Source of the DNA: a virus
Direction: 5' to 3' (one strand)
Length of the DNA: 47,480 bases
IMG/VR virus record: IMGVR_UViG_3300033562_000305
Both the position numbers and the translations under genes were made by a program. The notes beneath the pieces are model-generated. The model saw only the letters and a program-made list of their open reading frames with translations. It was not told the origin of the DNA and made no database searches. Positions 6,045 to 29,828 of this stretch are shown here, in pieces; the stretch's first letter is position 1, and each line of letters starts with the position of its first letter.

Positions 6045-6815
6045 ATGAGCATTTTAGACGGAGCCACGATCCCCGAGGGGACAATCAAGGCGACGGAAGG
6101 AGCCGGTGAGGCTGGCCTTCTTGGAACAAAACCGGCTGGGGAGCCGGTCAAGAAGGACGAACCCCAAGCGCCGGAATGGACGAAGGGACTTCCTGAGTCT
6201 CTCAGAAGCTCGAAGAGCCTATACAAGTTTCCAGACGGCACCCACGTCGAGAACCTTGCCAAAAGCTACGTCGAGGCTGAGAAAAAACTCGGACGATCCA
6301 TCGAACTACCCGGAAAAGACGCGACCGACGAAGATCGAGCCAGATTCTTCTCTAGGATCGGGAGACCTCAGAGCCCCGATGATTACGAATTGACAGTAGG
6401 CGACCCTGACCTTTCCAAGGCGTTGCGCAAGGTTGCGTTCGAGAGCGGTCTCACCAAAGAACAGCTCAAGGCGCAGTCGAGCGTCCTGTCGGAGTACGAA
6501 GCCGCGAAAGCCAAGCTGGCATCGCAGTCGTACACCGAAGCGGCAACCAAAGCCGACAGGCAACTGCGGGAAGAGTACGGTGCGCAGTATGACATACGGA
6601 TGGAATACGCCAAGAAGGGATTCGAGGAGCTGTATTCACCTGAGCTTCGCGCCCAGCTTTCAAAGGCAGGGATCACGAACAGCCCGGAGTTCATCCGCGT
6701 CATGTCCGATCTTGGTTCCCAGCTACGCGAGGCGTCCCTCAAGCGAGGGGCTCCGTCGAGCGAAGCCGACCAAGACCCCTACGTCAAGTCGATGGCTTAC
6801 CTCAAGAACCTGTAG
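6045..6815 (+). CDS. Scaffolding protein (candidate)
   Basis: 256 aa, highly charged, helix-prone and K/E-rich. It lies between the portal and the capsid gene, with an AAGGAG RBS. Confidence 0.6.
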   Translation: MSILDGATIPEGTIKATEGAGEAGLLGTKPAGEPVKKDEPQAPEWTKGLPESLRSSKSLYKFPDGTHVENLAKSYVEAEKKLGRSIELPGKDATDEDRARFFSRIGRPQSPDDYELTVGDPDLSKALRKVAFESGLTKEQLKAQSSVLSEYEAAKAKLASQSYTEAATKADRQLREEYGAQYDIRMEYAKKGFEELYSPELRAQLSKAGITNSPEFIRVMSDLGSQLREASLKRGAPSSEADQDPYVKSMAYLKNL

Positions 6816-8461: not shown

Positions 8462-9355
8462 ATGCCCGCAGTATCATCGCCGAGGTTTGACACGGTATAC
8501 GGAATAGCCGAGGCAGAAATCTGCAACAAGGCGCTCTCACGCCTGTCTGCCGATGTCATTAAGGACACGCTGGAGGACACGAAGCAGAGCCGGGCCTGCC
8601 GGGTCGCCTACTCTCAGACAAGGGACGAGCTTCTCCGCTCGTACCCGTTCAACTTCGCCATGCGCACCGCCTACGTCCCGCAGGACACCGCGTTCGCCTA
8701 CCCGATGGACGAGTACGAGTTCGCCTTCAAAGCCGAGGACCACCGCGCCTTCACCGGCACGACCGTGGCCGCAAGCCCGGTCATCGGCACCCTCGTCGGC
8801 CTCGTCGTGACTACCGGCCTCATAGGTCGCCATGTGCAGGGCGCTGGCATCCCGACCGACGCCCGGATCATATCGGTCGTAACCACGGTCGGAGCCGAGT
8901 CGATCACCCTCGACCGCCCGGCCACGGCGAGCGCCGCTGGCGTGGCCCTGTCGGTGCGTATCCCGATGCTCAAGCTCCTCGAAATCGCCCACAACGACGA
9001 GAACATCTTCGAGGTCATAGGCGGTGGAGCCGACCGCAGGATACTGTGTTCGATGTACTCGCCCGAGTCCGGCGCTGTATCCGAGCCGTATAACCTTGAA
9101 ATCAAGTACGTCGAGCAGATGATCGACCCGAGCAAGTTTGACTCGATGTTCGTCGATGCCCTCGCCCTGCGCATAGCCAGCAAGGTGGCCGTCACGCTCA
9201 CGACGAACGCCCAGCTCGCGTCCTTGATGCAACAGGAGTTTGCCGCCATCATGCAGTTGGCCCAGAACTCGTCGTCTCAGGAGCGGCAGGTCGATGCTCC
9301 CGAGCCGTTCTGGACCGACCGGCAGGACATCGTTCCCGTCCAGACAAGGCGGTAG
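8462..9355 (+). CDS. Virion structural protein, candidate head-tail adaptor or tail tubular A-like
   Basis: 297 aa with a GGAGG RBS. It is the first gene after the head module. The call rests on position only. Confidence 0.45.
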   Translation: MPAVSSPRFDTVYGIAEAEICNKALSRLSADVIKDTLEDTKQSRACRVAYSQTRDELLRSYPFNFAMRTAYVPQDTAFAYPMDEYEFAFKAEDHRAFTGTTVAASPVIGTLVGLVVTTGLIGRHVQGAGIPTDARIISVVTTVGAESITLDRPATASAAGVALSVRIPMLKLLEIAHNDENIFEVIGGGADRRILCSMYSPESGAVSEPYNLEIKYVEQMIDPSKFDSMFVDALALRIASKVAVTLTTNAQLASLMQQEFAAIMQLAQNSSSQERQVDAPEPFWTDRQDIVPVQTRR

Positions 9356-9358
9356 GCC

Positions 9359-12259
9359 GTGGGAACGATACGCCCGGTCATCACCGACTTCTCGGCTGGC
9401 GAGGTGTCGCCACGGCTGGCCGGGCGTACCGACTCGCCGATCTACACCCGGAGCGCCAAGGAGCTTACTAACTTCATCCCCGGCACCCTCGGTGGCATCT
9501 ATCGCCGTGGAGGCTTCCAGCACGTCATCGAAGCCCCGTATGTGAACGGAATATCAGGAGCGCGTGTAACCGGGAAGCTCCGTCTCATTCCGTGGAGCGT
9601 GAACGACACGCTCGACTTCCTCCTCGTCCTGTCGGACGGACGCATCGATATCCTCAATGTATCGACCGGGACCGAGCCGGGATACATCTACGGCACGAAC
9701 CTCGATGGTAGTAAAGATATAATCACCACCATAGGCGCCTATCCCTGTTACGCCGAAGAAATGACGCCTGCCGGTGAAGCGAAGATATACCCCATCGACG
9801 AGGTGAAGTACGCGCAGAGCATCCGGCAGGTATTCCTCGCACACAACCGCTACCCGCTCATGCAGATCAAGTTCATCTCTTTTGACCAGAGTACCCGCGA
9901 ACTAAAGCTCGAATACGGCTCTGTCGCTGTTACAGGAAATGTGGCATGGACCCCTGAATTGAAGGCTGATACAGTTGCGACAACAGACCCGTTCACCGCC
10001 GAGGCGTTCATCGGAATGTTCGGGTACAAGATGGTATCCGGTGTAACCAATGCCGCGACTGGCTTCGTGAACGGTAGGGAGATAGCTTCCATCGTCAAGA
10101 ATGTGACCGCGGCCACCAGACGCGCCACCATAAAACTTGAAGATATTGTCTCAATAGACCTCATAAACCAAACCATTACCGATGGAAGCTCGACACTGAT
10201 TCATGCTGGTGCGAATAAATCTAGTTTCATAGTCCGTATGTCGAAGGACTCTGGGCCGCTCTTCTCGATACCATACGGAGCTACATTCACGCAAGCTCTG
10301 GATATATTACAGGCAAACTTCTACATTATAGGGACATCGCCCATGTATTTTGGGCAGGATGGTTATGATTCCAACCCCGGGTGGTTGCTGGAATACCAGT
10401 ATGCCACCAAGGGTAGCATCAGCTTCGCCAAAACCGGATCATCCGAAAGCTACACGATCAACTTCAAGGACGCACAGAGCCCTCTTACTCTGACAAGTAC
10501 AACCACGGGGCTTACCGGATACGTTACCTGCCTCGGGCTTGTACTCAACAAGAACGTGACGCCGGGCGACAAGATGGCCGACCGGCTGTCACAGTGGATG
10601 ACGCCGGGCAAGGTGTACCCGTGCGACAAGGGCATGAAGATTTCCGGCCTCACCCCCGAGCGCGCCACGCGCTTTGACGGCAAGAAGCGGTATGGACCTC
10701 CTGACGCGAACGGATACACGCCTGTCATTAGCGATTCCGACTCGTACATTGAAGTCGAAGGAACCGATACCGAAGGAAAGTTTGCCACAAGGCAGATACG
10801 CCGTGGGGACGCAGGTGTCACAGGCCAGCTCGGTGTGATCCTCACCCCGTTCTGGAACCCCGGCGACAACCCCGGCTTCGTTGCGTTCCATCAGGGGCGG
10901 CTTGTTGTCGGAGGCTCGCACGGCGAGCCAAATGTCCTGTATATGTCCGAAGTCAACGTGTTCACGAGCTTCAAATACTTCGAGGAAGTCCTTTTCGAGT
11001 CAACTACCTTCACCGGCTACAGCGACGATAACGTGGCCCAGTACACGACCCGGCAGGACATCATTCAGCAGGTCGGGGCCGCAAGCGCCATCCGCCTCCA
11101 GCTTGCCACCGAGGAGAATGAGCAGATCGAGTGGGCCACGAGCGTCGCCGACCTCGTGATCGGCACAGCAACCTCCGAGTGGGTGATTCCTGCTGGGGTG
11201 ACAGCGCTCGATGCCCGCGTGATCCTCACGAGTCGGGCCGGATCGAAGGGTATTCAGGGCCGGTTCGTCAACGGATCGGTGATCTTCGTATCGCGCTCCG
11301 GCAGGAAGGTGTCTGCGTTCACCGCCGGGCAGGAGAACACGCAGGATATCACCGCGCACGCCGACCACATCGCCAAGCCGGTCGTCACCGGATTCGATTT
11401 CCGCCAAGACCCTCGTCAGGAACTATATGCAGTTCTGGCCGACGGCACTATGCTCTGCGGCCAGATACTCTCCGACATTGTGAGCTGGTCAAGGATCAAG
11501 ACAAGGACCGGAGACAAGATCAAGAGCGTCGCCTGCCTTGCCTCGTGGGACGAGGACGCCGTGTACTGTGCTGTCGAGCGCACCATCGGCGGAGTCACGG
11601 CAAGCTACATTGAACGCCTGTACCCAGCCGACGAGGACAGCTTCTTAGGGAGGCTCTACCTCGACTCCTCGGTGTCGAAGCAGGCCGACGGCACTGGCGT
11701 CATCACTGGCCTCGCCCGGTACAGCGCGTACCCGGTTGCTCCGACCGGACTCAAGATCATTGTCAACACCGGGACGACCGGATACTCGAATACGGGAACC
11801 CCTGTAGTGGACGCGGCTGGATCGTGTTCCAGCTACATCCCCGATGATCAGGGCATCTTGGTGACGCCGGTCGCTATCCCGATCCCGGCAGGTTCGCTTG
11901 CCCATATCGGCTTTGTCTACACAAGCCGGGTCGAGAGCTTCCGCATCGACGCCGCCGACACTGAGGGCTTGGACAAGAGCGCGGGTTTCCTGTACCTGCG
12001 GTTGTACAAGTCGGGAGACCTCCATATACTGCGGTATACCGACGTTGGGGTTCTTGACGTAGACGTGAGGGCCACGACGCCAACTGCGGCTACTGTCGAT
12101 GGAACCATATACAGGATATACCCGTATTCGGGAACCTTGAAGCTCGACCACCTTGGGCCAAGTCGGCCTGACCAGACGGTGATAATCGAGGCGCAGGGAG
12201 CAGAACCGGCTGGCATCCAGAGCATAGCCCCGGCTTACTCCGTCTCGTCACTCGAATAG
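9359..12259 (+). CDS. Large tail structural protein, candidate nozzle or tail tubular B-like
   Basis: 966 aa with a GTG start. The N-terminus FSAGEVSPRLAGRTD...LTNFIPGTLGGIYRRGGF resembles the N-terminal pattern of podovirus nozzle proteins, recalled from memory. Confidence 0.5.
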   Translation: MGTIRPVITDFSAGEVSPRLAGRTDSPIYTRSAKELTNFIPGTLGGIYRRGGFQHVIEAPYVNGISGARVTGKLRLIPWSVNDTLDFLLVLSDGRIDILNVSTGTEPGYIYGTNLDGSKDIITTIGAYPCYAEEMTPAGEAKIYPIDEVKYAQSIRQVFLAHNRYPLMQIKFISFDQSTRELKLEYGSVAVTGNVAWTPELKADTVATTDPFTAEAFIGMFGYKMVSGVTNAATGFVNGREIASIVKNVTAATRRATIKLEDIVSIDLINQTITDGSSTLIHAGANKSSFIVRMSKDSGPLFSIPYGATFTQALDILQANFYIIGTSPMYFGQDGYDSNPGWLLEYQYATKGSISFAKTGSSESYTINFKDAQSPLTLTSTTTGLTGYVTCLGLVLNKNVTPGDKMADRLSQWMTPGKVYPCDKGMKISGLTPERATRFDGKKRYGPPDANGYTPVISDSDSYIEVEGTDTEGKFATRQIRRGDAGVTGQLGVILTPFWNPGDNPGFVAFHQGRLVVGGSHGEPNVLYMSEVNVFTSFKYFEEVLFESTTFTGYSDDNVAQYTTRQDIIQQVGAASAIRLQLATEENEQIEWATSVADLVIGTATSEWVIPAGVTALDARVILTSRAGSKGIQGRFVNGSVIFVSRSGRKVSAFTAGQENTQDITAHADHIAKPVVTGFDFRQDPRQELYAVLADGTMLCGQILSDIVSWSRIKTRTGDKIKSVACLASWDEDAVYCAVERTIGGVTASYIERLYPADEDSFLGRLYLDSSVSKQADGTGVITGLARYSAYPVAPTGLKIIVNTGTTGYSNTGTPVVDAAGSCSSYIPDDQGILVTPVAIPIPAGSLAHIGFVYTSRVESFRIDAADTEGLDKSAGFLYLRLYKSGDLHILRYTDVGVLDVDVRATTPTAATVDGTIYRIYPYSGTLKLDHLGPSRPDQTVIIEAQGAEPAGIQSIAPAYSVSSLE

Positions 12260-12278
12260 CACAGGAAGGGGCTGGCCC

Positions 12279-13172
12279 ATGTTTTTTGAACTACTGACAG
12301 CCGCCGTCGGGGCGGGATATGGCGTATATCAGGCTGGCGAGCGCGAGCGGCAGACCGCACGTGAGGCGTTCCGTGCCGACCTCATGTACCAGTCCACCAA
12401 GAAACGTGCGCAGGCCGAAGAGGCCATGCTCCAGAATCGGATCACTATTGGAGCCATGGACAACACGGCCAACAACAAGGCGTCCGCCATATCGGAGTAC
12501 CAGAACCGCTCGATGCAGGTCGCGCAGGCTGGGGTCTCTGGGGCCAGTTCCGGCACCCCGTTCTACCGTATCGACGCCGACGCCATCCAGAACCGCAAGA
12601 TCATGGCGGACATGGAGACCAAGGGCAGGCTCGGCCTCGAAGGCATGGGCGACCAGCTCGAATCAGCCAAACTCGCCAACACCGCGCAGATCAGCGCCGC
12701 CTTCGACCAGTATCAGGACACCGCCGAGTCTGCGGCCTACGCGGCATCCCCGTTCGCCTACATTATGGGCGGATTGACAGGCGCGCTGTCGGGGGCTTCG
12801 ATGGGAGCCGACATCAGCTCGCTCACCAAAGGAGTGTTCCACGGAACCGTCGACGAGCTGGTCGGCGGGGCGGCTGGCAAGATATCAAGCCTGTTCCCGT
12901 CGGCTCAGGAGGCATCGATCAGCGCGGCGGCGGCTTCGGTGGCTTCCCAGCGTTCTGGCGGTATGTACTTAGACCCGAAGCCCAGTTCATGGCCCGTAGG
13001 GACGGAATACAACAAGGTGATAAAAAAGCCGTTCTCGCTCGCCGCCCTGTTTCCGTCGGCCATGGGCTATCAGGCATTGAACCCGGCCCCTTCCAGATAT
13101 GGACAGGGCAACATGTTTGGCGGATCGCCAGACCCGGCATCCAGAGGATCGACCTTCCAAGGAGGATGGTAA
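12279..13172 (+). CDS. Internal virion or ejection protein (candidate)
   Basis: 297 aa with a hydrophobic N-terminus (MFFELLTAAVGAGYGVY) and G/A/S-rich composition. It lies between the nozzle candidate and the giant protein. Confidence 0.5.
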   Translation: MFFELLTAAVGAGYGVYQAGERERQTAREAFRADLMYQSTKKRAQAEEAMLQNRITIGAMDNTANNKASAISEYQNRSMQVAQAGVSGASSGTPFYRIDADAIQNRKIMADMETKGRLGLEGMGDQLESAKLANTAQISAAFDQYQDTAESAAYAASPFAYIMGGLTGALSGASMGADISSLTKGVFHGTVDELVGGAAGKISSLFPSAQEASISAAAASVASQRSGGMYLDPKPSSWPVGTEYNKVIKKPFSLAALFPSAMGYQALNPAPSRYGQGNMFGGSPDPASRGSTFQGGW

Positions 13173-15164
13173 ATGGCGGACGCAATCAGCGACATCACAA
13201 CCCTCGCCGGGGCGTTCGGCAGTTTTACGAAAAGCCTTGCCACCCTACACGAGACGAAAGTCCGCGTCGAACAGGGCTTGATTCAGGCCCAGATCGAAAA
13301 AGCCAACAACGACTTCCTCCAGCGCTTCAACCTTGCCTACGGGGACCAGAATCGACTCACAAGCGAGAACTACATGGCCGCGCTCGACGAGCATGGCAAA
13401 GCGCTCGATGAGTACCTCGGCACCGTCCGGGGCGGCAAGGCCGTTGAATCGGCGGTCAGCGCCAACCTCATGCCGGTCACTGAGGGCTTCATCACCGCCG
13501 TCGGCAACAAGATGATAACGGTCTACCGCGAAGAGACGCAGGCCAAGCGACTGGCGACTGGCGACGCCATATCGAACGGCGGCGGTACTAGGCGCGAGAT
13601 AGCCGACAAGCTCAGGGCGTGGAACTCCGAGAATGTTTCCATGGGGTACTTCGATCCAGAGAAACAGGCCGAAATCGACAAGTCGGTACGGGTTCAGGTT
13701 GCCATGGCAGACGCCGATGACCTCATAACTACTTACAAGACCCCTGCTTTCGCCGCTGACCATATCCCCGAAGGTCTCGATAAGCTCGAAATGACAGCCA
13801 TGACCAAGTACATAAAAGACAGACAGGATGGCATTGACGCGCAGTTCGGCTCGCAGTTCGATGCCAGCTATGTCGAAAAAGCCAAGGCAGAGGTGCTGGA
13901 GGAAGGCGACTCCGCCGAATGGGCAGAAGCTACCCGCGAAGCATACAAGGCTGGCAGGATATCGAAAGCAGAATACGACAAGACTATTTCAAAGATAGTG
14001 ATATACGGCAGGAAAGCGATGGGATCAGACATAGTGTCATTTGGCAACAGCATGTTCGATGTCCTTGGGGCTGGCCCGTGGAGCAGGGCTGATGCCAATA
14101 ATGCCATCGCAGAACTAATGAGGCGATTTGGAAAGGTATCCTCCGGTTCGACAGAGTTACAGACCAAGCTAAAAGAAACCATCTCAAGATTCAACGCCGC
14201 CGCCCCGTCAGAGGAGGGCGATAGGACCGAAGAGAGAAACAGGATAATGAGCGAGTTCTACCTCAGACAGGACGCCACAAGCTCTTCCTCGTCAGGCTAT
14301 ACCGAGGCCGGACTCCTGAGCTACCTCAACGCTCAGGTTAGGGCGCGCCCCGAGCTTGGCCTTGCGTCATGGGCCGATACCGAACGTACCAAGTTGCACG
14401 AGAAACTGGGAATAACTTCCGGGCCGCTTGATTCGAGCGAGCAATTACAATGGGCTCGTGGCGCAATCGTTGATCCTGCCGTGGTCCTTGGACCTAAAAA
14501 AGACATAGACGCCTACTTCGATGGTAAAAGCAAGCAGGATAGGCTTGTTCAGGCCAAGATGGATGCAATCATGTTCGACACCGAAACGGCATACTATATG
14601 TGGCTGAACAAGAAGCCGTCGGCTTCTCAGAGCGAAAAAAGGACCATGTTCCAAGAACTGTTCAAGACTGCGGCAACAGCTTACCAGTTTGCTGTCGAAC
14701 CAATAAAGAAAAACTTGTGGGGTACCCAGAGTAGTAATGCCTTGTTTCAGGGCATGGTGGACAAGGGTGTGTTTGCTCAGTTCAATACTGAAAATCTCTT
14801 TGGAAACTCCGAGACCGCAACCTCTCTCGCGGCGGCAATCCAGTCGAACCAAAACGAATACAGCAGGATGTTCGATGAAGCCAAGAGTAGCGGATATATC
14901 GACAAAAACGTGAAACTTGTGCCGAAGGTATTTAGCGGGGACACATATATTTTCAGCGACGATGGCAGGTTCGTGTACGACCAGACGACGGAGGGTACAC
15001 AGCTTGTCATAAAGTGGGCCAGAGCAGACAGGATCGTAGGTTCACTCACCAAGGCCGTCCTTGATTCATTGGTGTGGGAGAAAGTGCAAACCAAGGCGGC
15101 ATCGAGTGAAGCCCCTGGCAGGGTCGACGTACAAGAGCCTTATGAAACAGGAATTAAGAAATGA
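13173..15164 (+). CDS. Internal virion or ejection protein (candidate)
   Basis: 663 aa. Its start abuts the upstream stop, and its own stop overlaps the next start (ATGA). Confidence 0.5.
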   Translation: MADAISDITTLAGAFGSFTKSLATLHETKVRVEQGLIQAQIEKANNDFLQRFNLAYGDQNRLTSENYMAALDEHGKALDEYLGTVRGGKAVESAVSANLMPVTEGFITAVGNKMITVYREETQAKRLATGDAISNGGGTRREIADKLRAWNSENVSMGYFDPEKQAEIDKSVRVQVAMADADDLITTYKTPAFAADHIPEGLDKLEMTAMTKYIKDRQDGIDAQFGSQFDASYVEKAKAEVLEEGDSAEWAEATREAYKAGRISKAEYDKTISKIVIYGRKAMGSDIVSFGNSMFDVLGAGPWSRADANNAIAELMRRFGKVSSGSTELQTKLKETISRFNAAAPSEEGDRTEERNRIMSEFYLRQDATSSSSSGYTEAGLLSYLNAQVRARPELGLASWADTERTKLHEKLGITSGPLDSSEQLQWARGAIVDPAVVLGPKKDIDAYFDGKSKQDRLVQAKMDAIMFDTETAYYMWLNKKPSASQSEKRTMFQELFKTAATAYQFAVEPIKKNLWGTQSSNALFQGMVDKGVFAQFNTENLFGNSETATSLAAAIQSNQNEYSRMFDEAKSSGYIDKNVKLVPKVFSGDTYIFSDDGRFVYDQTTEGTQLVIKWARADRIVGSLTKAVLDSLVWEKVQTKAASSEAPGRVDVQEPYETGIKK

Positions 15165-18100
15165 GCGACTTATTCGACGCCCTGAATACCGCAAGGCAGA
15201 CGGAGACGCAGTTTTCTCCGATTGCTGACGATGGGAGAATGGACATAGGCGGAGTCAAGATTGACCTGAAATCCGCTGAACACATAATCGTTTCAGCTCT
15301 TGAGGACGAGGAAGAGCGCAACTTCAAGGCCCGTATAGCCGAGAGTGCAGAGCTTGATCCGGCCATCGACGTGTCGCAGGCGTATGCCCGGTGGGACACC
15401 GCCAAAGCGTACGCGAAGATGTATAACGTGCCTCGCTCGGAGGCGTTCGCCAACCTTGAGCGGTACGACTCTGACTTCTTTGGCCGCACGCCAGACTATA
15501 AAACCGCTCCAAAAGCGATCCTCGACGCCGGTCTCGCGCAGGTCGAGTCAATGAAGATCGGCAAGCTCTACACCGAGCTTATGCTGGCAGAGGGGTTGAA
15601 CGGTCTCATTCCGGGAGAAGGCCAAGTATTCTCCGGCCCCACCGCCGAACGTGCCGCCGAGATAGAAGCGGAAATAGAAGCCATCAAAGAGAAGATGTCC
15701 GGGTACTCAAGCGACATCATCCCACGCGGAGCCCTCGTCTCGCTCGCCAAAAAGATATCATCTGCTACCCCGTACACGGTCAGCATCCTTGGAACCACGG
15801 CGGCGGCAGGCGCGGCTGTCACGGCGGCTGGGGCTACGTTTGGGCTCAGTTCTGGCCTCGCTATGGCGACGATAAAGTCATCCATCGTATCCCTTGTCGG
15901 CTTCACGGCTGGTTTCCGCATAATGGTCGGCCTTGAGTACGGAGAGATGATCGACCGTGGCATCGACCCGAAGGAAGCCGCCAAGTGGGCCACCCTGTCT
16001 GGAGCCGGACAGGCGGCTATCGAGCAGTTCCTCGGTATCGAAGGCGCCATCTCTGGCAAGATGTCGAAAGGCGTCATCGGGCGAGTTACCGAGCGGTTCA
16101 TCGAGAAGCTCCATGTATCGGGAGCCCTGACGACAGCGGCGAAGATATACGGAGCCCGCGTCGCGTTCAGCGCCATCGGCGAGGCTGGAGAAGAGGGCGG
16201 AGGAGCCTTGCTGTCCGGCATAGCCACACTCATGGCTCAATCGGCGACCGAAGAAGGGCTCGTCATCGATCCTATCAGGGCGAGTACCATAGCCAAGAAC
16301 ATCGCCACCTCGATGATAGAAGCGGCTATCACCGCTCCGTTCCTCGGTCTTGCTCCAGATATCTTGATGACGATTTCCGATACCAAGAAGCTGTCGAAAC
16401 TTGCAGGCATGGCCCCTGTCCTCCCGAAGGAAGAGTTTATCGACTATGGCATGGAGTCTGGCGCACTCGACGGCGTAGAACTCCCCGATGATAAGAAGCG
16501 GGCGGCTCTTGGAACGCTGTACGACCACCAGACCAAGACCGCCGAGGAGCAGGCGCTCGCCGGGGCCGAGGCCACGCGCAAGGCGGCGACCGAGGGCGCG
16601 AAGCCCGAGTCTGTAGTCCGCCGCGATGACGGCACCCTGCGCGTCGATGCCGAGGATTCCGGTATCACATCGGACGGCACCCAGTCGGTGACGTTCACGG
16701 CAGGCGCGGCTCGCGGCAAGGGCGACGTGTACGGTTCCATGTCCGCCAAGGTCACGGAAGATACCGTCACCCTCACCGACAGCGACATCGATGCCGAGCA
16801 TCTTCCCCTCGCCGGTGAAGTCATCGGGCAGATAGCCGCACGGTACCCCGGACGGCAGATACTCATTGGCGAAAAGGCCGACGAGGGCATAAAGGCCGCG
16901 TATGAGCAGTTCGTCAGGGAGCGCACCGACAATCCGTTTGTCGAGTCCGATACGCGCGATCCCGAAGTTGCGACCCTCCTTGAACAGCACCGCTCCAAGC
17001 TCCTTGCCGATGGCGTTGATCGCAAGGCCGTGAGCGTAGCGGTGGCCATGTTTGACATCATGTCGCAGGCCGGAGCCAACCGGACAGGGAAGAGCCAAGC
17101 CGAGTTCCTCCGCTCATTCGATGTAGCCGGAAACTACGTCGATGGGACTTTCCCCCCAGATACGAAGGTCGGCGGGTACCTGAGCAAGTATAAATTGGCA
17201 AGCCTCGATGCCTCGTCAACCAAGTTCGCCAAAGCCATCATAGCCATATTCTCGAAGTCGGACCCTGTGTATCAGGTAGAGACCGCCTCTCACGAGCCGG
17301 TTCACCTGTTCCGCTCATGGATGAGCGACAACGCCCGCGACGGCATCTTCTCGGAGTTCGAGAAGGAGTACGGCGTTGTCGACGGAAAATGGACAGAAGA
17401 GGCCGACGAGCTGTTCGTCGAGGATTGGACCCGCTGGCTTAGGGAAAAGCAGGCCGTTACGGGAGCGAAGAGTACAATCTTCGAGCGCCTGTCCCGCCTC
17501 CTCCGCGCCCTATACACGTCGATGACCGGGTATGCTCCGCTCCCTCCCAAGCTCCGCGCCGAGTTCGACTCGCTCATGGAGGGCGTATCGGTCGAAGTGG
17601 CCAAGAAAGGCTGGAACACCGACGAGCGGGCGAGCGCTCCGTACATCACGCGAGGCGAGCGCGGTGAGCATCCGGTAACGCAGAAGTATCGTGAAGCGGA
17701 GAAGGCCCGCTACGACGTTTCCCAGAAGATCATTGCCGATGCCGCCAAGGCCCAAGGCGAGGCTGACTTCAAGGCCACCGAGGAAGCCCTCAAAGAAGCC
17801 GCCGCCCAGTACAAGGACGACTTGCAGGTCGAGCTTGAAGCCGCGGTCCAGCCGCCAGCGTCCGTCCTCACCGCCCCCTTGACCGAGGACGGGGAACACT
17901 TCGCCGAGACGCCCGAGGCTGAAAAGACCACGAGCGCCCTCAACAAAGAGCGGTTCGAGACGGTCGAGTACGATCTAGCGAGGATAGAACACGATCCCGA
18001 GCTTAAAAACTTCAAGAGGATGGCGAACAAAAAAACCGGCGTCGTTATCCCCATCCACAGCGACAAATACGAGCGCATGGGTACCGCCCCCATCGTGATA

Positions 18101-21100
18101 TGGGAGCGGCTCGACGGGCGCACGGTCATAGTGACTGGACGGCACCGGCTCGACCTCGCCAAGCGCCTCGGGGAACAGACCATACCGTCTCAGATAGTCA
18201 CGGAGGCCGAGGGCTTCACGCTGGCTATGGCAAAGGCGTTCGACGCCGAGTCGAACATCCGCGACGAACAGGGGAGCGTAGAAGATTATGTCACATACTT
18301 CAGATTCTCAGGCATCTCGGAATCAGACGCAAGAGCTAAGGGACTACTGGGCCGCACCAAAGGATCAGCAGGGTTCGCTATCGCAAATTATGCGTCGGAA
18401 GGGCTTTACTCACTCTACATGGCCGGTGACATCACCGAAACAAGAGCCGCAGTCATAGCCACTGTGGGGCGCGGCAAGCCGTGGCTCCAAGCCGAAGGCA
18501 TCAAGGTAGCTAAAAACAAGAATATGTCCATCGACTCGCTGGCTTCGTATCTGGAAGTCGCAGGGATGGAAACATCCGGCGGCATGGGCGACGTGGATGG
18601 CGGCTTTGGTGAGGATGACTGGTTCAAGAACGACGCCGATGCGATAGCCCAGCAGAAGCGGTGGCTGTCCATGGGCGAGGCTGTCGCAAACCGTATGGCT
18701 GAACTGAGGAACGAAGAACGCCTGCTCAATGCTGGCATAAAAAGCGGAGGAGCCTCTGCCAAGGAATATCTTGAGAAGTACGGCAGTCGCTCCGGCGATA
18801 TCGAGAGCATGAAGAAGCGGTACGAGGAACTGTACTTCGAGCTGAAGGGCTGGGAGTCCGGTTGGACACAGAACCCCTACCGCGTGAACGAGGCAAAGAA
18901 GCTCGCAGGATTAAAGTACGACGAGACCCTTGTCGAGCCCGACTTGCGTGTGCGGGACCGCGACAAGGAAGAGCGCGGCCAAGAGATGCTCTTCAACATC
19001 TCTGAGCGCTCCGCCATCGAGGCTCGGCAGGCGCAGATCGAGGATGGCACATGGGTCGCCAACCCCCAACTCGTCGCCGAGATCAAGGTGAGTAAGGGCA
19101 TCGAGCTGTCGCAGTACGAGAGCGACCTCCTCTCGGTGGCAGAGCAGTATTCCGAGAGCAACGGGAAACCCGACCTCCTCTTCAATATCTCCGGCGACAA
19201 TACTGGCGAGAAGCGGGCATACGCCGACCAGTTTGCCGAGGCCCGCAACTACGCGAGCTTCGAGTCATGGCTCGACGCCATGTTCGCCTCGAAAGAAGCC
19301 CTGACCGAGAACGACCGCGAATGGCTCCGCGCCCGGTACGAGAACGCCCAGTCAACGCTCAACAAGCCGCGCAAGTACGCAAAGTCAGGCGACTTTGCCA
19401 AGGCCATGTCCACCCGAGGCGGTGTCGCCAGCTTCGTGTCCCAGCTTGAGCGCGCCATCTACGGTCGCGGCAGGTACGAGAGCGACGTGACCAAGGCGCG
19501 GGCGAAGAAGATCGAGTCAGCCATCAGCCGCACGCCGGAACTCAAGCGCCTCGTTGGCGAACTGCACACTGAAGGCAAGGTTCCGTCGCCCCAGTCGGCC
19601 CGCCAGCTTCTCCGCGATATGAAGGAGTACGAGGCGCTCTACAAGTACCTGTACGCCGTCCTCCAGACGGACGAGGTTCTGGCTCACGAGGCGCTCGACG
19701 ACATGAAGGAAGTCCCCGAGCTTATCAAGCGGGAACTGACCGGCAACGCCGCGCGCACCATAGCGGAACAGCAGTACATCATTGATGCCCTGCGCTTCGA
19801 TCAGAAGTACGACAGGATCGCGTCGGGAGAGGCGACCCTTTCCGACATCGACGCCTTCATCGAGGACGTTAAGGCGTTCAAGGACGAGGAGATGGAGGAG
19901 TTCGCCGACAGCGCCAAGGCCGAGGCCAAGCTCGCCATGGACCGGCAAAAGGATAAGGAGCGAGCGCGCGACGCCCTCCGCAAGCTCCGCTCCGAGATGG
20001 CTCGCCTGCGGAAGTTCATCTTCACTGAGCCGTCGGCCCGGATCGACCTCGAACAAGCCTCGGTCATCCGGTACATACAACAGTACCTCCGGGCCGGTAA
20101 ACCCGTAGACCCCAAGAGCCTCCGCATGGCCGGTTCGTACATTTTCACGTCGATGCCAGGCCTCGCCGAGGTCATAGCCCAGAGCGTCGATAGCGTGAGC
20201 GGCAAGGACTTTTCACAGTGGAGCATGGACGAGGTGCGCAGTATTGCCTCCATCATGGCAGACCTCGCCGACCTCGGGCGCGAAGCCCTGCGAGGAAAGG
20301 AGCTTGAGTTCGGGTACAACGCCAAGAGCAAGCGCGGCCTCATAAACAGCGCCATGCGGAACAGCAAGTACCACCTTCCTCCCGTGATGAAGGATAGCGA
20401 AGAGGACATCGAGCGCCGCGGAAAGAACCGCCTGCGCAAGGCTCTGTTCGATGCCGACCGCCCCGACGCATGGATCAAGAAGTACCTCGGCAAGGACGCC
20501 TACGACCTCCTCTTCTCGAACACCGTCGATGCCCACAGGCTCAAGTACGAGAACTATGACCGCAGGATCAATCCGGTCGTGGACTACATCGACAAGCACG
20601 ACATGGTAAAAAGCGGCTCTATGTTCCGCAAGATTTTCGCCAGAGGTATCGGGCCGGAAGGGACCGACGCCACCATCACGGGCGCAGAACTGCTGGGCAT
20701 CAGGCTCCTGTACGGTGACTACCATGGGGGGAACGACTACAACACGGAACAGCGCGAGGCGTTCATCTACGGCAACCTCTTCTCGGCGGACGAGAAGAAC
20801 GTGGACGGCAACCTGACGCAGGAACGAGAACTGGCCACGAACCAGAAGATGCGCGACGCCTACAAGGAGAAGTGTGAAAAGGTTGAAGCCCTCCTCAAGG
20901 CCAACCTGAGCGCCGAAGAGGAAGAGCTTGCCCGGCTCATGGTCGGCGTGTCAGACAACGATCAGGACTGGGGCCGCTTCGCCAAGGCCATCTATATGCT
21001 CACAAACAAGGAGCCGTCGAAGAACCGATTCTACTTCCCCATTTTCCGCTCGGGCGTGTTCGGGAAGGGCGAGGACGACATCATCGACTCCCTCGCCGCC

Positions 21101-22417
21101 AGCGGCATGACGGTGGCGCTCGATCAGGGCATGGCAATCTCCCGCGTCGCAATACAGCCGCGCAACCAGCGCCCCGTGCAGATCAACGCGATGAAGGTAT
21201 TCTTCTCGGCGGTCGAAAAGCAGGAACACCTTATCAATGTCGGACTTCACGCCAAGCTCCTCCATGGCGTCTTTATGAACCAGACCATGGGCGATGCGGT
21301 CCTCCCGAACATCGACCAGTCGCTCGGCAAGGAAGCCGTCGATTACATAAAGAACCAGATCGACACGATCACCAATCCGTCCCACTGGAGCGAGAAGGCG
21401 TCAGGCGGCAAGCTCCTCGGGGCGGCCCGCGGCTCCATCGTCATATCGAACCTCGCCTTCCGCTGGTCGAGCGTCGTCATGCAGGGGCTCACGAGCCAGC
21501 TTCCGTTCCTGTCGGAAGTGAGTGCGGCCCAGCTCCTCGCCGTCTCGACCGAGGCGATGACAGACATGCCCGAGTTCACCAAGCGCATGGAAGCCGAGTC
21601 GGCGATCCTGCGGCACCGGCAGATGACCGCCGAGGTCGCCTACCTCGAACAGCGGATCGAACAGGGCGTCGCCTCGAAGCTGGAAAAACTCTCGCAGATC
21701 GGCATGAAGCCCTTGACGTGGATTGACCGCTACTCGGTCGCCATCGGATGGGAAGCCGTGCGCCGGGCCGAGCTCGACGAGTTCCTGTCAAAAGGTGTCG
21801 AAGAGAACGATGCGAAACTTGCCGCGTCAGCCTATGCCGATGAAGTCATCATCAAGACCCAGCCGACCTCGGAAGAAGTGTACCGATCCCCGATGTACCG
21901 GAACATGAACGAGTATAAACAGCTCGTCCTCCAATTCACCCAGCCGTTGAACGTGATATGGAACAACCTGCGCAACGACATTCCTGATGCCGTGCGCGAA
22001 CATGAGTTCCGCAAGTACATGGGCTTCATCGCCGCCTACGCCCTCTCGGGGATCGCCGTATCAGCCATCGCCGTCGCGCGTGGGCGCGGGCCGGACGATC
22101 CCGACGAAGAGAAGTGGCTCCGCTACTTTCTGCACGCGACCACGACGCAGTTCACCGACTCCATCCCCCTCGTCGGCGGCATTGCCACGTTGTTGACCCG
22201 CAAGGCCATAGTGGGTGATACTGGGTACCTGAACGATATGAACATGCCAGCGGCTTCCGGCATTGCACGGGCAGGGGTGATGATGCTTGGCCAAGACCCC
22301 GACTACGGCAAGGTCGCCAAGACCCTTGGCACCTCGATCGGCCTGTTCGTCGGAGCCCCGGTCAAGGGCGCGCTGGACGTGTGGGAGCTGGGCAAGGCGA
22401 TAGCTGGCGAGGAGTAG
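15161..22417 (+). CDS. Giant (2418 aa) virion-delivered polyvalent-type protein with HExxH metallopeptidase-like and ParB-like motifs
   Basis: HEPVH at nt 17291-17305. ParB/Srx-like IVTGRHRLDLAKRLG within about nt 18032-18280. Hydrophobic segments at aa ~200-400 and ~2285-2410, plus long coiled coils. The position matches podovirus ejection proteins. Confidence 0.7.
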   Translation: MSDLFDALNTARQTETQFSPIADDGRMDIGGVKIDLKSAEHIIVSALEDEEERNFKARIAESAELDPAIDVSQAYARWDTAKAYAKMYNVPRSEAFANLERYDSDFFGRTPDYKTAPKAILDAGLAQVESMKIGKLYTELMLAEGLNGLIPGEGQVFSGPTAERAAEIEAEIEAIKEKMSGYSSDIIPRGALVSLAKKISSATPYTVSILGTTAAAGAAVTAAGATFGLSSGLAMATIKSSIVSLVGFTAGFRIMVGLEYGEMIDRGIDPKEAAKWATLSGAGQAAIEQFLGIEGAISGKMSKGVIGRVTERFIEKLHVSGALTTAAKIYGARVAFSAIGEAGEEGGGALLSGIATLMAQSATEEGLVIDPIRASTIAKNIATSMIEAAITAPFLGLAPDILMTISDTKKLSKLAGMAPVLPKEEFIDYGMESGALDGVELPDDKKRAALGTLYDHQTKTAEEQALAGAEATRKAATEGAKPESVVRRDDGTLRVDAEDSGITSDGTQSVTFTAGAARGKGDVYGSMSAKVTEDTVTLTDSDIDAEHLPLAGEVIGQIAARYPGRQILIGEKADEGIKAAYEQFVRERTDNPFVESDTRDPEVATLLEQHRSKLLADGVDRKAVSVAVAMFDIMSQAGANRTGKSQAEFLRSFDVAGNYVDGTFPPDTKVGGYLSKYKLASLDASSTKFAKAIIAIFSKSDPVYQVETASHEPVHLFRSWMSDNARDGIFSEFEKEYGVVDGKWTEEADELFVEDWTRWLREKQAVTGAKSTIFERLSRLLRALYTSMTGYAPLPPKLRAEFDSLMEGVSVEVAKKGWNTDERASAPYITRGERGEHPVTQKYREAEKARYDVSQKIIADAAKAQGEADFKATEEALKEAAAQYKDDLQVELEAAVQPPASVLTAPLTEDGEHFAETPEAEKTTSALNKERFETVEYDLARIEHDPELKNFKRMANKKTGVVIPIHSDKYERMGTAPIVIWERLDGRTVIVTGRHRLDLAKRLGEQTIPSQIVTEAEGFTLAMAKAFDAESNIRDEQGSVEDYVTYFRFSGISESDARAKGLLGRTKGSAGFAIANYASEGLYSLYMAGDITETRAAVIATVGRGKPWLQAEGIKVAKNKNMSIDSLASYLEVAGMETSGGMGDVDGGFGEDDWFKNDADAIAQQKRWLSMGEAVANRMAELRNEERLLNAGIKSGGASAKEYLEKYGSRSGDIESMKKRYEELYFELKGWESGWTQNPYRVNEAKKLAGLKYDETLVEPDLRVRDRDKEERGQEMLFNISERSAIEARQAQIEDGTWVANPQLVAEIKVSKGIELSQYESDLLSVAEQYSESNGKPDLLFNISGDNTGEKRAYADQFAEARNYASFESWLDAMFASKEALTENDREWLRARYENAQSTLNKPRKYAKSGDFAKAMSTRGGVASFVSQLERAIYGRGRYESDVTKARAKKIESAISRTPELKRLVGELHTEGKVPSPQSARQLLRDMKEYEALYKYLYAVLQTDEVLAHEALDDMKEVPELIKRELTGNAARTIAEQQYIIDALRFDQKYDRIASGEATLSDIDAFIEDVKAFKDEEMEEFADSAKAEAKLAMDRQKDKERARDALRKLRSEMARLRKFIFTEPSARIDLEQASVIRYIQQYLRAGKPVDPKSLRMAGSYIFTSMPGLAEVIAQSVDSVSGKDFSQWSMDEVRSIASIMADLADLGREALRGKELEFGYNAKSKRGLINSAMRNSKYHLPPVMKDSEEDIERRGKNRLRKALFDADRPDAWIKKYLGKDAYDLLFSNTVDAHRLKYENYDRRINPVVDYIDKHDMVKSGSMFRKIFARGIGPEGTDATITGAELLGIRLLYGDYHGGNDYNTEQREAFIYGNLFSADEKNVDGNLTQERELATNQKMRDAYKEKCEKVEALLKANLSAEEEELARLMVGVSDNDQDWGRFAKAIYMLTNKEPSKNRFYFPIFRSGVFGKGEDDIIDSLAASGMTVALDQGMAISRVAIQPRNQRPVQINAMKVFFSAVEKQEHLINVGLHAKLLHGVFMNQTMGDAVLPNIDQSLGKEAVDYIKNQIDTITNPSHWSEKASGGKLLGAARGSIVISNLAFRWSSVVMQGLTSQLPFLSEVSAAQLLAVSTEAMTDMPEFTKRMEAESAILRHRQMTAEVAYLEQRIEQGVASKLEKLSQIGMKPLTWIDRYSVAIGWEAVRRAELDEFLSKGVEENDAKLAASAYADEVIIKTQPTSEEVYRSPMYRNMNEYKQLVLQFTQPLNVIWNNLRNDIPDAVREHEFRKYMGFIAAYALSGIAVSAIAVARGRGPDDPDEEKWLRYFLHATTTQFTDSIPLVGGIATLLTRKAIVGDTGYLNDMNMPAASGIARAGVMMLGQDPDYGKVAKTLGTSIGLFVGAPVKGALDVWELGKAIAGEE

Positions 22418-22421
22418 AACG

Positions 22422-23837
22422 ATGGCGAAGGTCCGGCAACATGATGGCGACCTGTATGTGTCCGGCAACCTTCGCGTCCTCGGCGGCATCCAGAACGTCA
22501 AGAACTCCGAGACCGTCACCCGCGTCGCCACGAGCGAGGCGGCTATCGCAACGGTCGAAGCCACTGTTGTCGAGCAGACAGAACAGCTCACCGAGATAAG
22601 TGGGGAGTTGGCCGAGATACATGACCCGAACCAGCTCACCACCCAGCTCAAGCGCGGAGCCCAGATTCAATGGGAAGCCGTGGTTGAGCTGAACACCGCC
22701 ATTCTTGCGGCCATGACCAAGGTCGGGCTTCCGACGAGCAACCAGACCTACCTCAATTATGACTCGGTGTACGACTCGCTATACGCATACCTTTTCACAA
22801 ACCCTGCGTGCCTTGCTGACCTGACCACAACGACGACGATCAATTATGTGACGTTTGCAAGCCTCTGGAAGGCAGAGGTCGAGAAGCGCGAGGCTCTCTC
22901 GACCCTGATCCAGTCGTGGGGCTACCTCCATGGTACCGAGGATGCCGCCGCGAGCGCGACAAGGATTCCGGTTCCTCCGGTTGTAACAGCAAACATCATG
23001 TTCAATACCGCCTACCTCCGGTGGCCAATTCAGGCTGGACTCACGGGTGAAGTGACCCACCGGATCGAGCGCTCCGACGCCTCAAACTTCGCCACGCATA
23101 CTGACGTAGCCACAATCTTCGGGAACGCCTACACCGAGGAGGGGCTCGCCCTCAACGGCACCGACGACGCTCCTACTTCCAGAACCTACTACTACCGCGT
23201 CGTGCGGATCGTGAACGGTACTGTCGAAAGCAGTCCTTCGACGGTCATCTCGGTAGTCGCGGCCTCTTTGAGCCCGAAGGCCATAGCGGCCAGCGCAATC
23301 AACGCGGCCAAGTTGGCCTCTGGTGCCGTGGCGGACATGACCAAGTTTGCCAGCACGATACGACCGCCGAGGGTGGTGGCCACGGTGCCTACCGATTTTA
23401 CGCCATACGTCGCCGGTGACACGGTGGTCTGCACGGGAGACAATAAGCTGTACCGCTTTACCGGCACCGCCTTTGTCTCGTCGGTTCCTACCGGAGACTT
23501 GACTGGAACCGTTGCCGGGAGCCAGATCGCTCAGGAAGCCATCGACATGACAAAGATGGCGGCATCGATCAGGCCACCAAGAGTATTGGATGGGCCATCA
23601 TTGCCCGGAACGCCGTGGACGGGGTACACTACTGGCGACCTCGTGGTGCTGACGAGCGATGGACTTCTGTATCGATTCACCGGCTCTGGCTGGTCAGGGG
23701 CCGTTGTCAATATAGACAACCTTCCGGGCCAGATTTCATCAAGCCAGATAGAGAATAGTGCCGTAGGGATGAACCAGATCGCGTCCGGTGCGGTGACAGC
23801 GGAGAAGATGCTGTCGAACCGGCACTACATTTCCTAG
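22422..23837 (+). CDS. Tail fibre or appendage protein with an FN3-like domain and an internal tandem duplication
   Basis: 471 aa. FN3-like segment at aa ~183-280 (AYLRWP...YYYRVVRIVNG). Two copies of the motif DMTK.A..IRPPRV...GD.VV...D..LYRFTG. Fibre-type A.I.A.K repeats are present. Confidence 0.65.
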   Translation: MAKVRQHDGDLYVSGNLRVLGGIQNVKNSETVTRVATSEAAIATVEATVVEQTEQLTEISGELAEIHDPNQLTTQLKRGAQIQWEAVVELNTAILAAMTKVGLPTSNQTYLNYDSVYDSLYAYLFTNPACLADLTTTTTINYVTFASLWKAEVEKREALSTLIQSWGYLHGTEDAAASATRIPVPPVVTANIMFNTAYLRWPIQAGLTGEVTHRIERSDASNFATHTDVATIFGNAYTEEGLALNGTDDAPTSRTYYYRVVRIVNGTVESSPSTVISVVAASLSPKAIAASAINAAKLASGAVADMTKFASTIRPPRVVATVPTDFTPYVAGDTVVCTGDNKLYRFTGTAFVSSVPTGDLTGTVAGSQIAQEAIDMTKMAASIRPPRVLDGPSLPGTPWTGYTTGDLVVLTSDGLLYRFTGSGWSGAVVNIDNLPGQISSSQIENSAVGMNQIASGAVTAEKMLSNRHYIS

Positions 23838-23852
23838 AAGAAGGGGTATCGT

Positions 23853-24923
23853 ATGCCGAATATAATCACGAACCAGAGGTACTTCAAACGCTATCCGTTC
23901 GAGGGAACTTCACTACCGGCTGGTTGGGGCGTCTCGGCGCTCGGTACCGGCATGGCGGTCGCCGTCGCTGGCGGTGCCATGACGATCACGACTGGCACGA
24001 CCGCAAGCGCGATCACCCGCGTGGCCTGCTCCATCTCATTAATTCCCCGGTGTCGTATCCGCTTCATCGCAAAACTGAGCCAGCGTATTGCCAATCAGAC
24101 GTTCTACCTCGAAGTACGCAACGCCGCAGGCACGACCTATGCCCGGTACAAGTTCACCGGAACCACGAACACGGTGTGCGCAGTAGAATCGGCATACGCA
24201 GGTGTAGCAAACACCGGGAAGAGCCCCGGCACCATCGGAGCGACTTCCACCTCGAACCTGTACGATATCCGCCTCGACATGGATCGTGCAATCTACTCGA
24301 TCATCGCCGCCGATGCCGCTTCGATCATGTCACCCTCGGTGGTGTTCGACCGCAACGTTCCTGCCAACGAGGACGAACTGTATATCGAAATCCGCGCGGA
24401 GAACGGTGGAACCGCACCGGCTTCAACGACTACGCTGACGATTGAGTCTGTGATGATTTCCGACATGGAAAACGTCGCAGTCGAAATAGTCCCCGGTCAG
24501 GCGATCCAGAACTCTGCCACGGCAGTCCCGATAGTATCAACGGGCGGAAGCGTATCGGTGTCTGGCTCCGTCACGAACACGCCGGTTACTTCTTCCGCCT
24601 CAACCATCGTAGCCGCCGCCAGCACGAACGCAACCGTTGTCAAGGCCTCAGCGGGAACCCTATTTAATATGAATATCTCGAACGAACACACAGCTGCCCA
24701 GCATGTGAAAATATACAACAAGGCAACCGCACCGACAGTCGGCACCGACCAGCCGGTGTTGACAATTCCGGTTCCGGCTTCGAGCAACGTCCAGATTCAC
24801 TTTGGAGCAGTCGGACTTCGCCTGAGCGCCGGTATCGGTCTGGCTATCACCGCACTCATGCCGTACACCGATACGGGAGTCGCAACCGTCAACGGCGTCC
24901 GCTGTTGCACCGAGTTCGTGTAA
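23853..24923 (+). CDS. Virion structural protein, possibly a receptor-binding or fibre accessory protein
   Basis: 356 aa, beta-rich and T/S/A/V-rich, located between two fibre genes. Confidence 0.45.
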   Translation: MPNIITNQRYFKRYPFEGTSLPAGWGVSALGTGMAVAVAGGAMTITTGTTASAITRVACSISLIPRCRIRFIAKLSQRIANQTFYLEVRNAAGTTYARYKFTGTTNTVCAVESAYAGVANTGKSPGTIGATSTSNLYDIRLDMDRAIYSIIAADAASIMSPSVVFDRNVPANEDELYIEIRAENGGTAPASTTTLTIESVMISDMENVAVEIVPGQAIQNSATAVPIVSTGGSVSVSGSVTNTPVTSSASTIVAAASTNATVVKASAGTLFNMNISNEHTAAQHVKIYNKATAPTVGTDQPVLTIPVPASSNVQIHFGAVGLRLSAGIGLAITALMPYTDTGVATVNGVRCCTEFV

Positions 24924-24932
24924 GGAATAGAA

Positions 24933-29814: not shown

Positions 29815-29828
29815 GAAAGGGCTTCCCA

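Follow-up and report, generated by a model that had tools for sequence, protein, structure and literature searches.

A 2418-residue candidate polyvalent protein with a single cargo slot in a short-tailed phage genome

What might a phage do with a single protein of more than two thousand residues? This question is raised by the IMG/VR virus record IMGVR_UViG_3300033562_000305, a stretch of 47,480 nucleotides (the whole of it is called the window below), whose longest open reading frame (ORF) runs from 15161 to 22417 on the plus strand. The ORF starts with ATG, encodes a protein of 2418 residues (P0001) and occupies 15.3% of the 47480 bases, in line with the first-pass annotation of this DNA, which had singled it out as the largest ORF at about 15% of the genome. 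That annotation proposed a polyvalent protein combining a zincin-type HExxH motif with a ParB-like one, polyvalent proteins being a class that was established in 2017 from genome comparisons (Iyer, Burroughs, Anand, de Souza & Aravind, PMC5512222). Judged from homology and gene location, the proposal appears largely right, and we lean towards reading P0001 as a phage-type polyvalent protein that consists of a carrier with one cargo slot and that would act by the mechanism set out below. We found little experimental work on polyvalent proteins, namely virion proteomics of phi24B gp47 and a knock-down of PTXU04 gp25; the present locus offers a compact and readable example, with one carrier, one cargo and two delimiters.

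Two effector-type modules in one chain

Searches of the whole of P0001 against Pfam, PHROGs and NCBIfam returned nothing usable, no MuF or LPD family was detected in the protein itself, and phmmer against the PDB gave only a chance-level match to HP0721 in a low-complexity stretch. Since the direct family searches were empty, domain calls were tested through relatives and models. A word-indexed search retrieved 22 giants of 1406-4103 residues, many of which carry ART-PolyVal, LPD1, LPD3, LPD5, LPD23, LPD38, RadC or helicase domains; the polyvalent-type domains of the homologues also include DUF7178, PBECR3, PBECR5 and GGDEF. With blastp, P0001 fell into three parts (residues 56-861, 930-1260 and 1281-2416), and the sets of relatives differ from part to part. 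The one chain of 2418 residues holds at least two unrelated effector-type domains, a HExxH...E module (termed HX) and a ParB-fold module. P0001 is thereby linked by homology to proteins bearing polyvalent signature domains, and it is encoded among late and virion genes; both facts support the class to which it had been assigned. Because key residues of the HX and ParB-like modules are invariant in divergent relatives, the features read from the sequence of P0001 are judged to exceed chance.

The ParB-type string noted earlier, VIWERLDGRTVIVTGRHRLDLAKRLG, was found at residues 979-1004 (nt 18095-18172), within the approximate range first given for it. In an alignment of 11 module sequences, F951, K952, G993-R994-H995-R996, E1015, D1028 and N1032 are invariant. 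A profile of the module matched Noc (E 0.0027), SbnI and ParB in the PDB, all on the strand-GxxR-helix core, with the GRHR loop aligned opposite GERR in Noc and GVHR in SbnI. P0001 itself showed no match to Pfam ParB_N (PF02195) at the gathering score, and six of the 11 family members matched this model below threshold (best E 5.3e-4). The DdrB-ParB model of Pfam gave no match at E<=10 in any of the 11 sequences, a search in which HMMER filters may hide very weak ones. An AlphaFold2 model of the module, with a mean predicted local distance difference test score (pLDDT) of 83, was compared with the PDB using Foldseek. All of the top 50 matches are ParB, Noc, KorB, PadC, SbnI, sulfiredoxin or similar (best E 2.4e-5), with about 200-220 aligned columns and a target-normalised TM-score of up to 0.62. 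The whole 336-residue unit recurs in a viral structure library at E 2e-10, in "large polyvalent protein associated domain-containing" proteins of uncultured phages, and ordinary phage ParB proteins rank next. Since the PDB profile search, the model and Foldseek agree, the predicted ParB/Srx fold of residues 925-1260 is confirmed at this level, as is the ParB/Srx call of the first-pass annotation.

The module could be a nuclease gated by nucleoside triphosphate (NTP) or a DNA clamp, two activities that its sequence alone does not tell apart. Its two-domain shape, as seen with Foldseek, is that of clamps dependent on cytidine triphosphate (CTP), and the best structural matches, over the full 200-220 columns, are such clamps (ParB, Noc and KorB). 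In addition, PxFK (K952), GRHR (993-996) and ESNIRD (N1032), all invariant in the family, provide counterparts of three ParB boxes, which we take, from the alignment and known ParB motifs, to be the nucleotide-binding boxes. On these grounds the module might serve the phage DNA, either as a nucleotide-gated clamp or end-binder that escorts, protects and positions the genome or as a KorB-like early regulator; we find this credible, without expecting it. However, box II reads GRHRLD rather than the GERRxR of CTP-dependent clamps, and in this loop the module is presumably nearer to Srx/SbnI-type and nuclease-type members, which have GxHR. No parS-like site and no C-terminal ParB dimerisation domain turned up, although none was specifically sought. 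Moreover, an NTP-regulated DNase is the activity that Iyer et al. favour for ParB-like domains (PMC5512222).

The HEPVH motif lies at residues 711-715, exactly where it had been placed, and is followed by EDWTRW at residues 754-759. Across 13 relatives, whose identity to P0001 over the segment is 16-31%, H711, E712, H715, W744, E750 and F774 do not vary, and the first five of these residues are 98-99% conserved in 155 relatives. E750, which stands 35 residues past HEPVH, is the candidate for the third-ligand Glu. A region-restricted word search for further HX relatives yielded just three new proteins, and an exhaustive profile search was used instead. Among 1.84 billion cluster representatives it found 11359 HX proteins at E<=1e-3 (8990 at E<=1e-10), most of them giants with the module at about residue 600-900. 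The HX region had no match in Pfam, PHROG, NCBIfam or PDB sequences, a Pfam scan of 10 short HX-bearing proteins was likewise blank, and the HX profile brought up only designed coiled coils among the PDB sequences.

A first hhalign comparison of HX with an alignment of two MPTase sequences was too weak to be of use (probability 7%) and was repeated with 119 ArdC-type MPTase-PolyVal domains. This gave P 1.2e-4 over 103 columns, against P 0.12-0.66 for six unrelated pairs run as controls. In the resulting register HExxH falls on HExxH, the strand before it and the EExxA helix with its Glu are likewise matched, and E750 stands opposite the EELIAE of the ArdC-type MPTase. A structure prediction from 13 sequences (mean pLDDT 63) was confident only for the two helices bearing HExxH (71-89 of the predicted segment) and E750 (111-127). 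Hence, the zincin call stands in part: a conserved HExxH...E and a moderate ArdC-type profile match speak for it, while Pfam, PHROG, NCBIfam and PDB gave no match and the model has no zincin fold. HX is probably a zincin-like metallopeptidase. One library protein, P0151, bears HX at 8-135 and MPTase-PolyVal (PF18818) at 131-255, side by side, and the two are therefore distinct families; HX may be one of the twelve MPTase clades mentioned by Iyer et al. (PMC5512222). Identity of HX with MuF-C (PF18819, present in P0025) was considered and rejected, as MuF-C is a BECR RNase domain (Iyer et al., PMC5512222); PF18819 returned no match for P0001 or the short HX-bearing proteins scanned.

The carrier, its cargo slot and the delimiters

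Each block of P0001 (Table 1) was used as a jackhmmer query against 170 proteins. The order N1-(N2)-HX ... (C1)-C2-C3 is shared by 68 of these relatives, with HX ending at about residue 800-900, C3 at the C-terminus and one variable gap between HX and the C-part, from 12 residues in P0057 to 1913 residues. In P0001 this carrier amounts to about 2000 residues, with an N-part of N1, N2 and HX (residues 1-840) and a C-part of C1-C3 (about 1340-2418) that contains long helices and a C-terminal membrane-type helix. The hydrophobic segments reported earlier were recovered at residues 207-259, 385-406 and 2286-2308, the last being the strongest of the protein (score 1.97; Kyte-Doolittle, 19-residue window). 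Long coiled coils, also reported, are backed indirectly, by long helices in the model of the ParB-like module and by noise matches to keratin and kinesin coiled coils.

The content of the gap differs from one carrier to the next. In P0001 it holds the ParB-like module alone, in P0002, which is the nearest relative with 53% identity over the C-block, ART-PolyVal and DUF7178, and in P0003 (41% identity), which lies at a syntenic locus, almost nothing. Pfam matches in 15 carriers scanned were to LPD23 (eight carriers), ART-PolyVal and LPD3 (five each) and PBECR5 and RadC (two each), besides further ones to PBECR3, GGDEF and DUF6782; P0057, the gap-free member of 2222 residues, was among the 15 and had no Pfam domain. 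The ParB-like module also occurs in an unrelated type of carrier, being shared with LPD38-type giants of Vibrio and Pseudoalteromonas (31-33% identity), for instance in Vibrio phage 1.211.A, and the middle block was found in giants of cultured Vibrio and Shewanella phages (33% identity). Because the slots of the relatives differ and the ParB-like module spans both carriers, the comparison shows cargo to have been exchanged, as far as homology can tell, at a single slot and even between unrelated carriers. This exchange bears on how phages deliver counter-defence enzymes at entry.

In Vibrio phage 1.211.A (L001, 4591-12738) the protein of 2715 residues is annotated as 'N-6 adenine-specific DNA methylase'; it has the ParB-like module at residues 469-770 and LPD38 at 2396-2576, and it contains neither an HX module nor an LFQ motif. 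The C3 block of P0001 showed no likeness to the LPD38 region in hhalign (probability 0.6%), and P0001 has no Pfam match to LPD38 (PF18857). In Rhodobacteraceae phage LS06-2018-MD07 (L002) the annotation lists a C3 homologue as a hypothetical protein in its own right, about 500 residues long, that overlaps the end of a 'methyltransferase' coding sequence of about 9.3 kb crossing the record origin; this arrangement may be a split or mis-annotated giant.

The border of the slot is marked by a short motif. P0001 had been credited with a duplicated LLFNIS; the strict repeat is LFNIS, as the first copy reads MLFNIS (residues 1276-1281) and the full LLFNIS is present only in the second (1339-1344). 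In the 68 carriers LFQ was observed 158 times against 24.3 expected, and 144 of these sites fall in the slot zone, taken as the stretch from where HX ends to 100 residues into the C-part. Their consensus is acidic/Asn/Pro followed by Ile-Leu-Phe-Gln-Thr-Glu-Glu-Glu. They precede 66 unrelated clusters of downstream sequence, the largest of which is the start of C1; the enrichment was thus not attributed to one repeated cargo domain. Copy 2 of LFNIS (residue 1340) aligns with ILFQT at the C1 start, where P0002 reads LLYSLT and P0003 VLFSLV, and a conserved mini-domain of 58 residues is bracketed by copy 1 in P0001 and by SLYSLT in P0003. Judged by these alignments, LFNIS is the P0001 version of a family-wide delimiter between modules, hLFQ(T). 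In eight of the 68 carriers a conserved LFQ is also found inside the C-terminal helix of HX (LFQKFAEFL; residue 850 in P0011, residue 789 in P0028), and these sites are delimiter-like, not delimiters.

The delimiter accompanies the HX module. In HX-bearing giants LFQ was counted 247 times against 46.7 expected, and in 12 giants lacking HX four times against 4.1 expected; in many carriers a delimiter directly follows HX. This correlation fits a proposal by Iyer et al., who described MPTase-ParB fusions and suggested that polyvalent proteins are processed by their MPTase domains (PMC5512222), and it points to candidate sites. A built-in self-processing system might be formed by the hLFQ/LFNIS delimiters together with the HExxH module, the giant being a polyprotein with a plug-in slot between the halves of an ejection protein. 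We put this forward tentatively and would not be surprised to see it fail. Through the family comparison a vague idea of zincin processing becomes testable: E712 can be named as its catalytic residue, and residues 1277-1281 and 1340-1344 as its candidate sites. If self-processing is true, a dedicated zincin that is present in at least 11000 clusters and absent from Pfam would cut a short motif and so free or activate the cargo of the slot, and uncultured podoviruses would possess a general modular device for protein delivery with a readable cleavage code.

An ejected internal protein could also have its delimiters cut by another protease, from head maturation or from the host, or keep them uncut as structural caps, docking strands or linkers. 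In phage T4 the prohead protease trims internal proteins. The window itself contains a rival candidate for processing the giant, an ORF of 256 residues between the portal and capsid genes (6045-6815) that matches phrog_458 'protease' (E 6e-14) and phrog_3742; it has no match to any Pfam family or Pfam peptidase, and could be a scaffold or a protease. This reading would also suit the absence of a delimiter between HX and cargo in P0001 and of any strict one in 16 of the 68 carriers, and N4 virion RNA polymerase (vRNAP), ArdC and TraC1 are transferred at full length despite their MPTase domains (PMC5512222). Against it stand the enrichment of LFQ that follows HX presence, the delimiter placed directly after HX in many members and the occurrence of the motif ahead of 66 unrelated sequences, which argues against its membership of any single domain. 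On balance we regard cutting by another protease, or no cutting, as unlikely, though well within reason.

The HExxH domain might instead be an effector that acts after ejection, on peptidoglycan cross-links or on a protein of host defence or envelope, with the giant working as a whole. T7 gp16, which is encoded in the same gene slot, has a wall-degrading domain. Known peptidoglycan peptidases, to our knowledge, use other motifs (M15, M23). HX stands directly before the slot in all 68 carriers, the cargo-free one included, and its presence correlates with the delimiter, neither of which favours an effector. The authors of the phi24B study suggest a peptidoglycan role for the annotated metallopeptidase of gp47 (bioRxiv 10.64898/2026.04.10.717836), a precedent that is weak because Iyer et al. 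assign the MuF-C domain, which gp47 carries, to the BECR RNase fold; they list action on host proteins among the options for MPTases (PMC5512222). Taken together, an effector role for HX seems improbable to us.

Genome position and the proposed course of events

The window reads as a whole short-tailed phage genome. Its portal is of T7 type (PF12236, E 9e-98), and its major capsid protein belongs to the epsilon15 type (PF20911, E 3e-66). Portal and capsid genes are followed by genes for tail-tube A- and B-like proteins (assigned by matches to phrog_394 and phrog_376), two unannotated ORFs, the giant, two further ORFs and the fibre (Table 1). T7-like phages place the genes of internal-core or ejection proteins in this slot between tail tube and fibre, and the order of tail tube, giant and fibre bears out the earlier remark that the giant occupies the position of podovirus internal-core proteins. 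The ATG of P0001 shares an ATGA with the stop codon of the upstream 663-residue ORF, and AGGA precedes the ATG by 7 nt; translation of the two ORFs is therefore probably coupled. The same gene order surrounds P0008, on a contig (L003) with a BPP-1-like element, and P0003 (L004); the latter is preceded by ORFs of 140, 347, 297, 1038, 302 and 887 residues after a GP7-type capsid gene.

Table 1. Position of P0001, its modules and the flanking genes in the window
Feature	Position	Strand	Remarks
Upstream block	8462..15164	+	tail-tube-A-like 8462-9355; tail-tube-B-like 9359-12259; unannotated ORFs of 297 and 663 residues
Whole gene, P0001	15161..22417	+	candidate polyvalent carrier protein, 2418 residues; probably coupled to the upstream 663-residue ORF
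Carrier module N1 (residues 1-430)	15161..16450	+	Gly/Ala-rich hydrophobic residues 207-259 and 385-406; common to 95 of 170 relatives
Carrier module N2 (residues 430-640)	16448..17080	+	common to 75 of 170 relatives; no known family match
HX module (residues 636-840)	17066..17680	+	HExxH...E, metallopeptidase-like; HEPVH 17291-17305; W744 17390-17392; E750 17408-17410
Linker from HX to cargo (residues 841-924)	17681..17932	+	acidic/Ala-rich; without delimiter motif
Cargo, ParB/Noc/KorB-like module (residues 925-1260)	17933..18940	+	ParB/Srx N-domain, helical domain, long C-terminal helices
ParB loop G993-R994-H995-R996	18137-18148	+	within the N-domain of the cargo
Delimiter copy 1, LFNIS (residues 1277-1281)	18989..19003	+	border of cargo and carrier
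Delimiter copy 2, LFNIS (residues 1340-1344)	19178..19192	+	counterpart of the family motif ILFQT at the C1 start
Carrier module C1 (residues 1281-1600)	19001..19960	+	contains the 58-residue mini-domain between the two delimiters
Carrier module C2 (residues 1600-1950)	19958..21010	+	helix-rich
Carrier module C3 (residues 1950-2418)	21008..22417	+	transmembrane-like helix at residues 2286-2308 (22016-22084), then acidic patch
Downstream block	22422..29276	+	ORFs of 471 and 356 residues, then tail fibre of 1447 residues

From this position, and from podovirus precedents, we infer that P0001 would travel inside the capsid, as internal-core proteins do, and leave it together with the DNA at infection. 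The halves of the carrier may help to form or to cross a conduit through the envelope. The HExxH domain, as its co-occurrence with the delimiters suggests, would cut P0001 at these sites, and the products would be N- and C-fragments of about 140 and 120 kDa, respectively, with a peptide of about 63 residues from between them. Since P0001 has no delimiter between HX and cargo, cutting at LFNIS would leave the ParB-like module on the N-fragment and not free. On the freed N-fragment this module would, by analogy with its superfamily, bind a nucleoside triphosphate and act on DNA, as a nickase/nuclease or as a clamp. Virion packaging and an anti-defence function of P0001 are likewise inferred.

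P0001 might also stay out of the capsid, as a late intracellular protein such as an assembly scaffold, or as an external, tail-associated structural protein. The unlikeness of the carrier to any solved internal protein would be in keeping with this. However, the slot between tail tube and fibre recurs in three related loci, and the enzymes of the relatives (ART, RNases, GGDEF) are sensible only inside a host cell. There is also a virion precedent in another giant polyvalent protein: gp47 of phi24B (2811 residues, with LPD5, LPD1 and LPD38) was detected in virions by mass spectrometry, was invisible in cryo-electron microscopy and has been proposed as an ejection protein (bioRxiv 10.64898/2026.04.10.717836). 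We therefore consider an unpackaged P0001 very improbable. The 2198-residue polyvalent protein gp25 of PTXU04 was needed for plaque formation in a knock-down screen (PMC11879866). As gp47 and gp25 belong to another type of carrier, they back the general idea only.

Several results weigh against P0001 as an ejected, self-cleaving carrier of cargo. To the blank family searches of the whole protein must be added that a profile of the carrier matched only coiled-coil noise in the PDB, no solved ejection protein being alike, and that N1 had no known family match and no PDB relative. The carrier occurs in almost no cultured phage, which also limits immediate experiments; the cargo-free P0057 gave no tblastn match in 50697 phage records. 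When the neighbours of the giant were compared between the window and L003 by blastp, only scaffold and capsid were alike. As for HX, its model is all-helical, with no sheet before the HExxH helix (pLDDT <60 there), Foldseek of this half-confident model against the PDB found nothing with E <2, and the hhalign probability for the ArdC-type match was just 55%. The link between delimiter and HX is a correlation between two lineages, with only 12 giants on the HX-less side, and shared ancestry could yield it. Finally, P0001 lacks a delimiter between HX and cargo, and the 16 carriers noted above have none by the strict pattern. Weighing these points, we still lean towards a polyvalent carrier with one slot and the course of events proposed.

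Some further features of these genomes were noted. The terminase large subunit of the window (1475-4057, 860 residues) has a weak LAGLIDADG_3 match at residues 299-339 ahead of Terminase_6C at 666-789, which suggests an intein or a homing-endonuclease insert. A second intein-like insert in this phage group occurs on the P0003 contig, where a SNF2-type helicase (L004, 25667-26111) has a weak Intein_splicing match. The GC content of the window falls to 0.473 at 28001-30000, against about 0.59 elsewhere, in a region where the 1447-residue fibre gene has its 3' end and the next ORFs begin. On the P0008 contig a diversity-generating retroelement (bAvd and reverse transcriptase; L003, 23852-25529) lies beside fibre genes; the contig also has an integrase and a Bbp19-like gene and is a BPP-1-like temperate element.

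Comparison with known systems

In its two modules P0001 resembles several known proteins without coinciding with any. By the hhalign alignment, HX shares with ArdC-type MPTase-PolyVal (PF18818) the HExxH, the subsequent EExxA helix with the putative third-ligand Glu and the preceding strand, whereas spacing and inserts differ and HX has an invariant Trp (W744) and Arg718. With the ParB/Noc/KorB clamps and the Srx/SbnI enzymes the ParB-like module shares the fold of N-domain and helical domain, the Gly-x-x-Arg loop and motifs like boxes I and III; unlike the clamps, it has GRHR, lacks a ParA partner and is embedded in a giant that is presumably a virion protein.

As a protein of the virion interior, P0001 would be comparable to the T7 proteins gp14-gp15-gp16 and to N4 gp50 vRNAP, with which it has in common the slot between tail tube and fibre, great size, richness in helices and membrane-type segments. 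It differs from the T7 core proteins and N4 gp50 in having no sequence or profile similarity to any solved ejection protein and no transglycosylase or RNA polymerase domain. N4 gp50 also bears an MPTase-like domain (Iyer et al., PMC5512222). The LPD38-type giants (phi24B gp47, PTXU04 gp25, the protein of Vibrio phage 1.211.A) are of similar size to P0001, are likewise encoded within the structural module and have a like set of polyvalent domains; in contrast to it, they carry LPD1, LPD5 and LPD38 and have neither HX nor an enrichment of LFQ.

The closest kinship is with the polyvalent proteins of Iyer et al., such as phage P1 DdrB with its ParB-like and MPTase domains, which like P0001 are giants of late modules that combine a zincin-like HExxH with a ParB/Srx domain. 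The relatives of P0001 likewise carry ART-PolyVal, LPD, PBECR and RadC domains. Unlike that class, the domains of P0001 itself reach no Pfam model (MPTase-PolyVal PF18818, DdrB-ParB and ParB_N all fail), and unlike the DdrB type its ParB module is a two-domain unit similar to ParB and Noc. A term search in the text of PMC5512222 found neither a carrier with one slot nor a recurring delimiter. Neither a curated family nor a solved structure exists for HX, the carrier modules or the ParB-like module. What is new here is the single-slot architecture of the carrier, the delimiter and the way it accompanies the HExxH module, and how large these uncurated families are.

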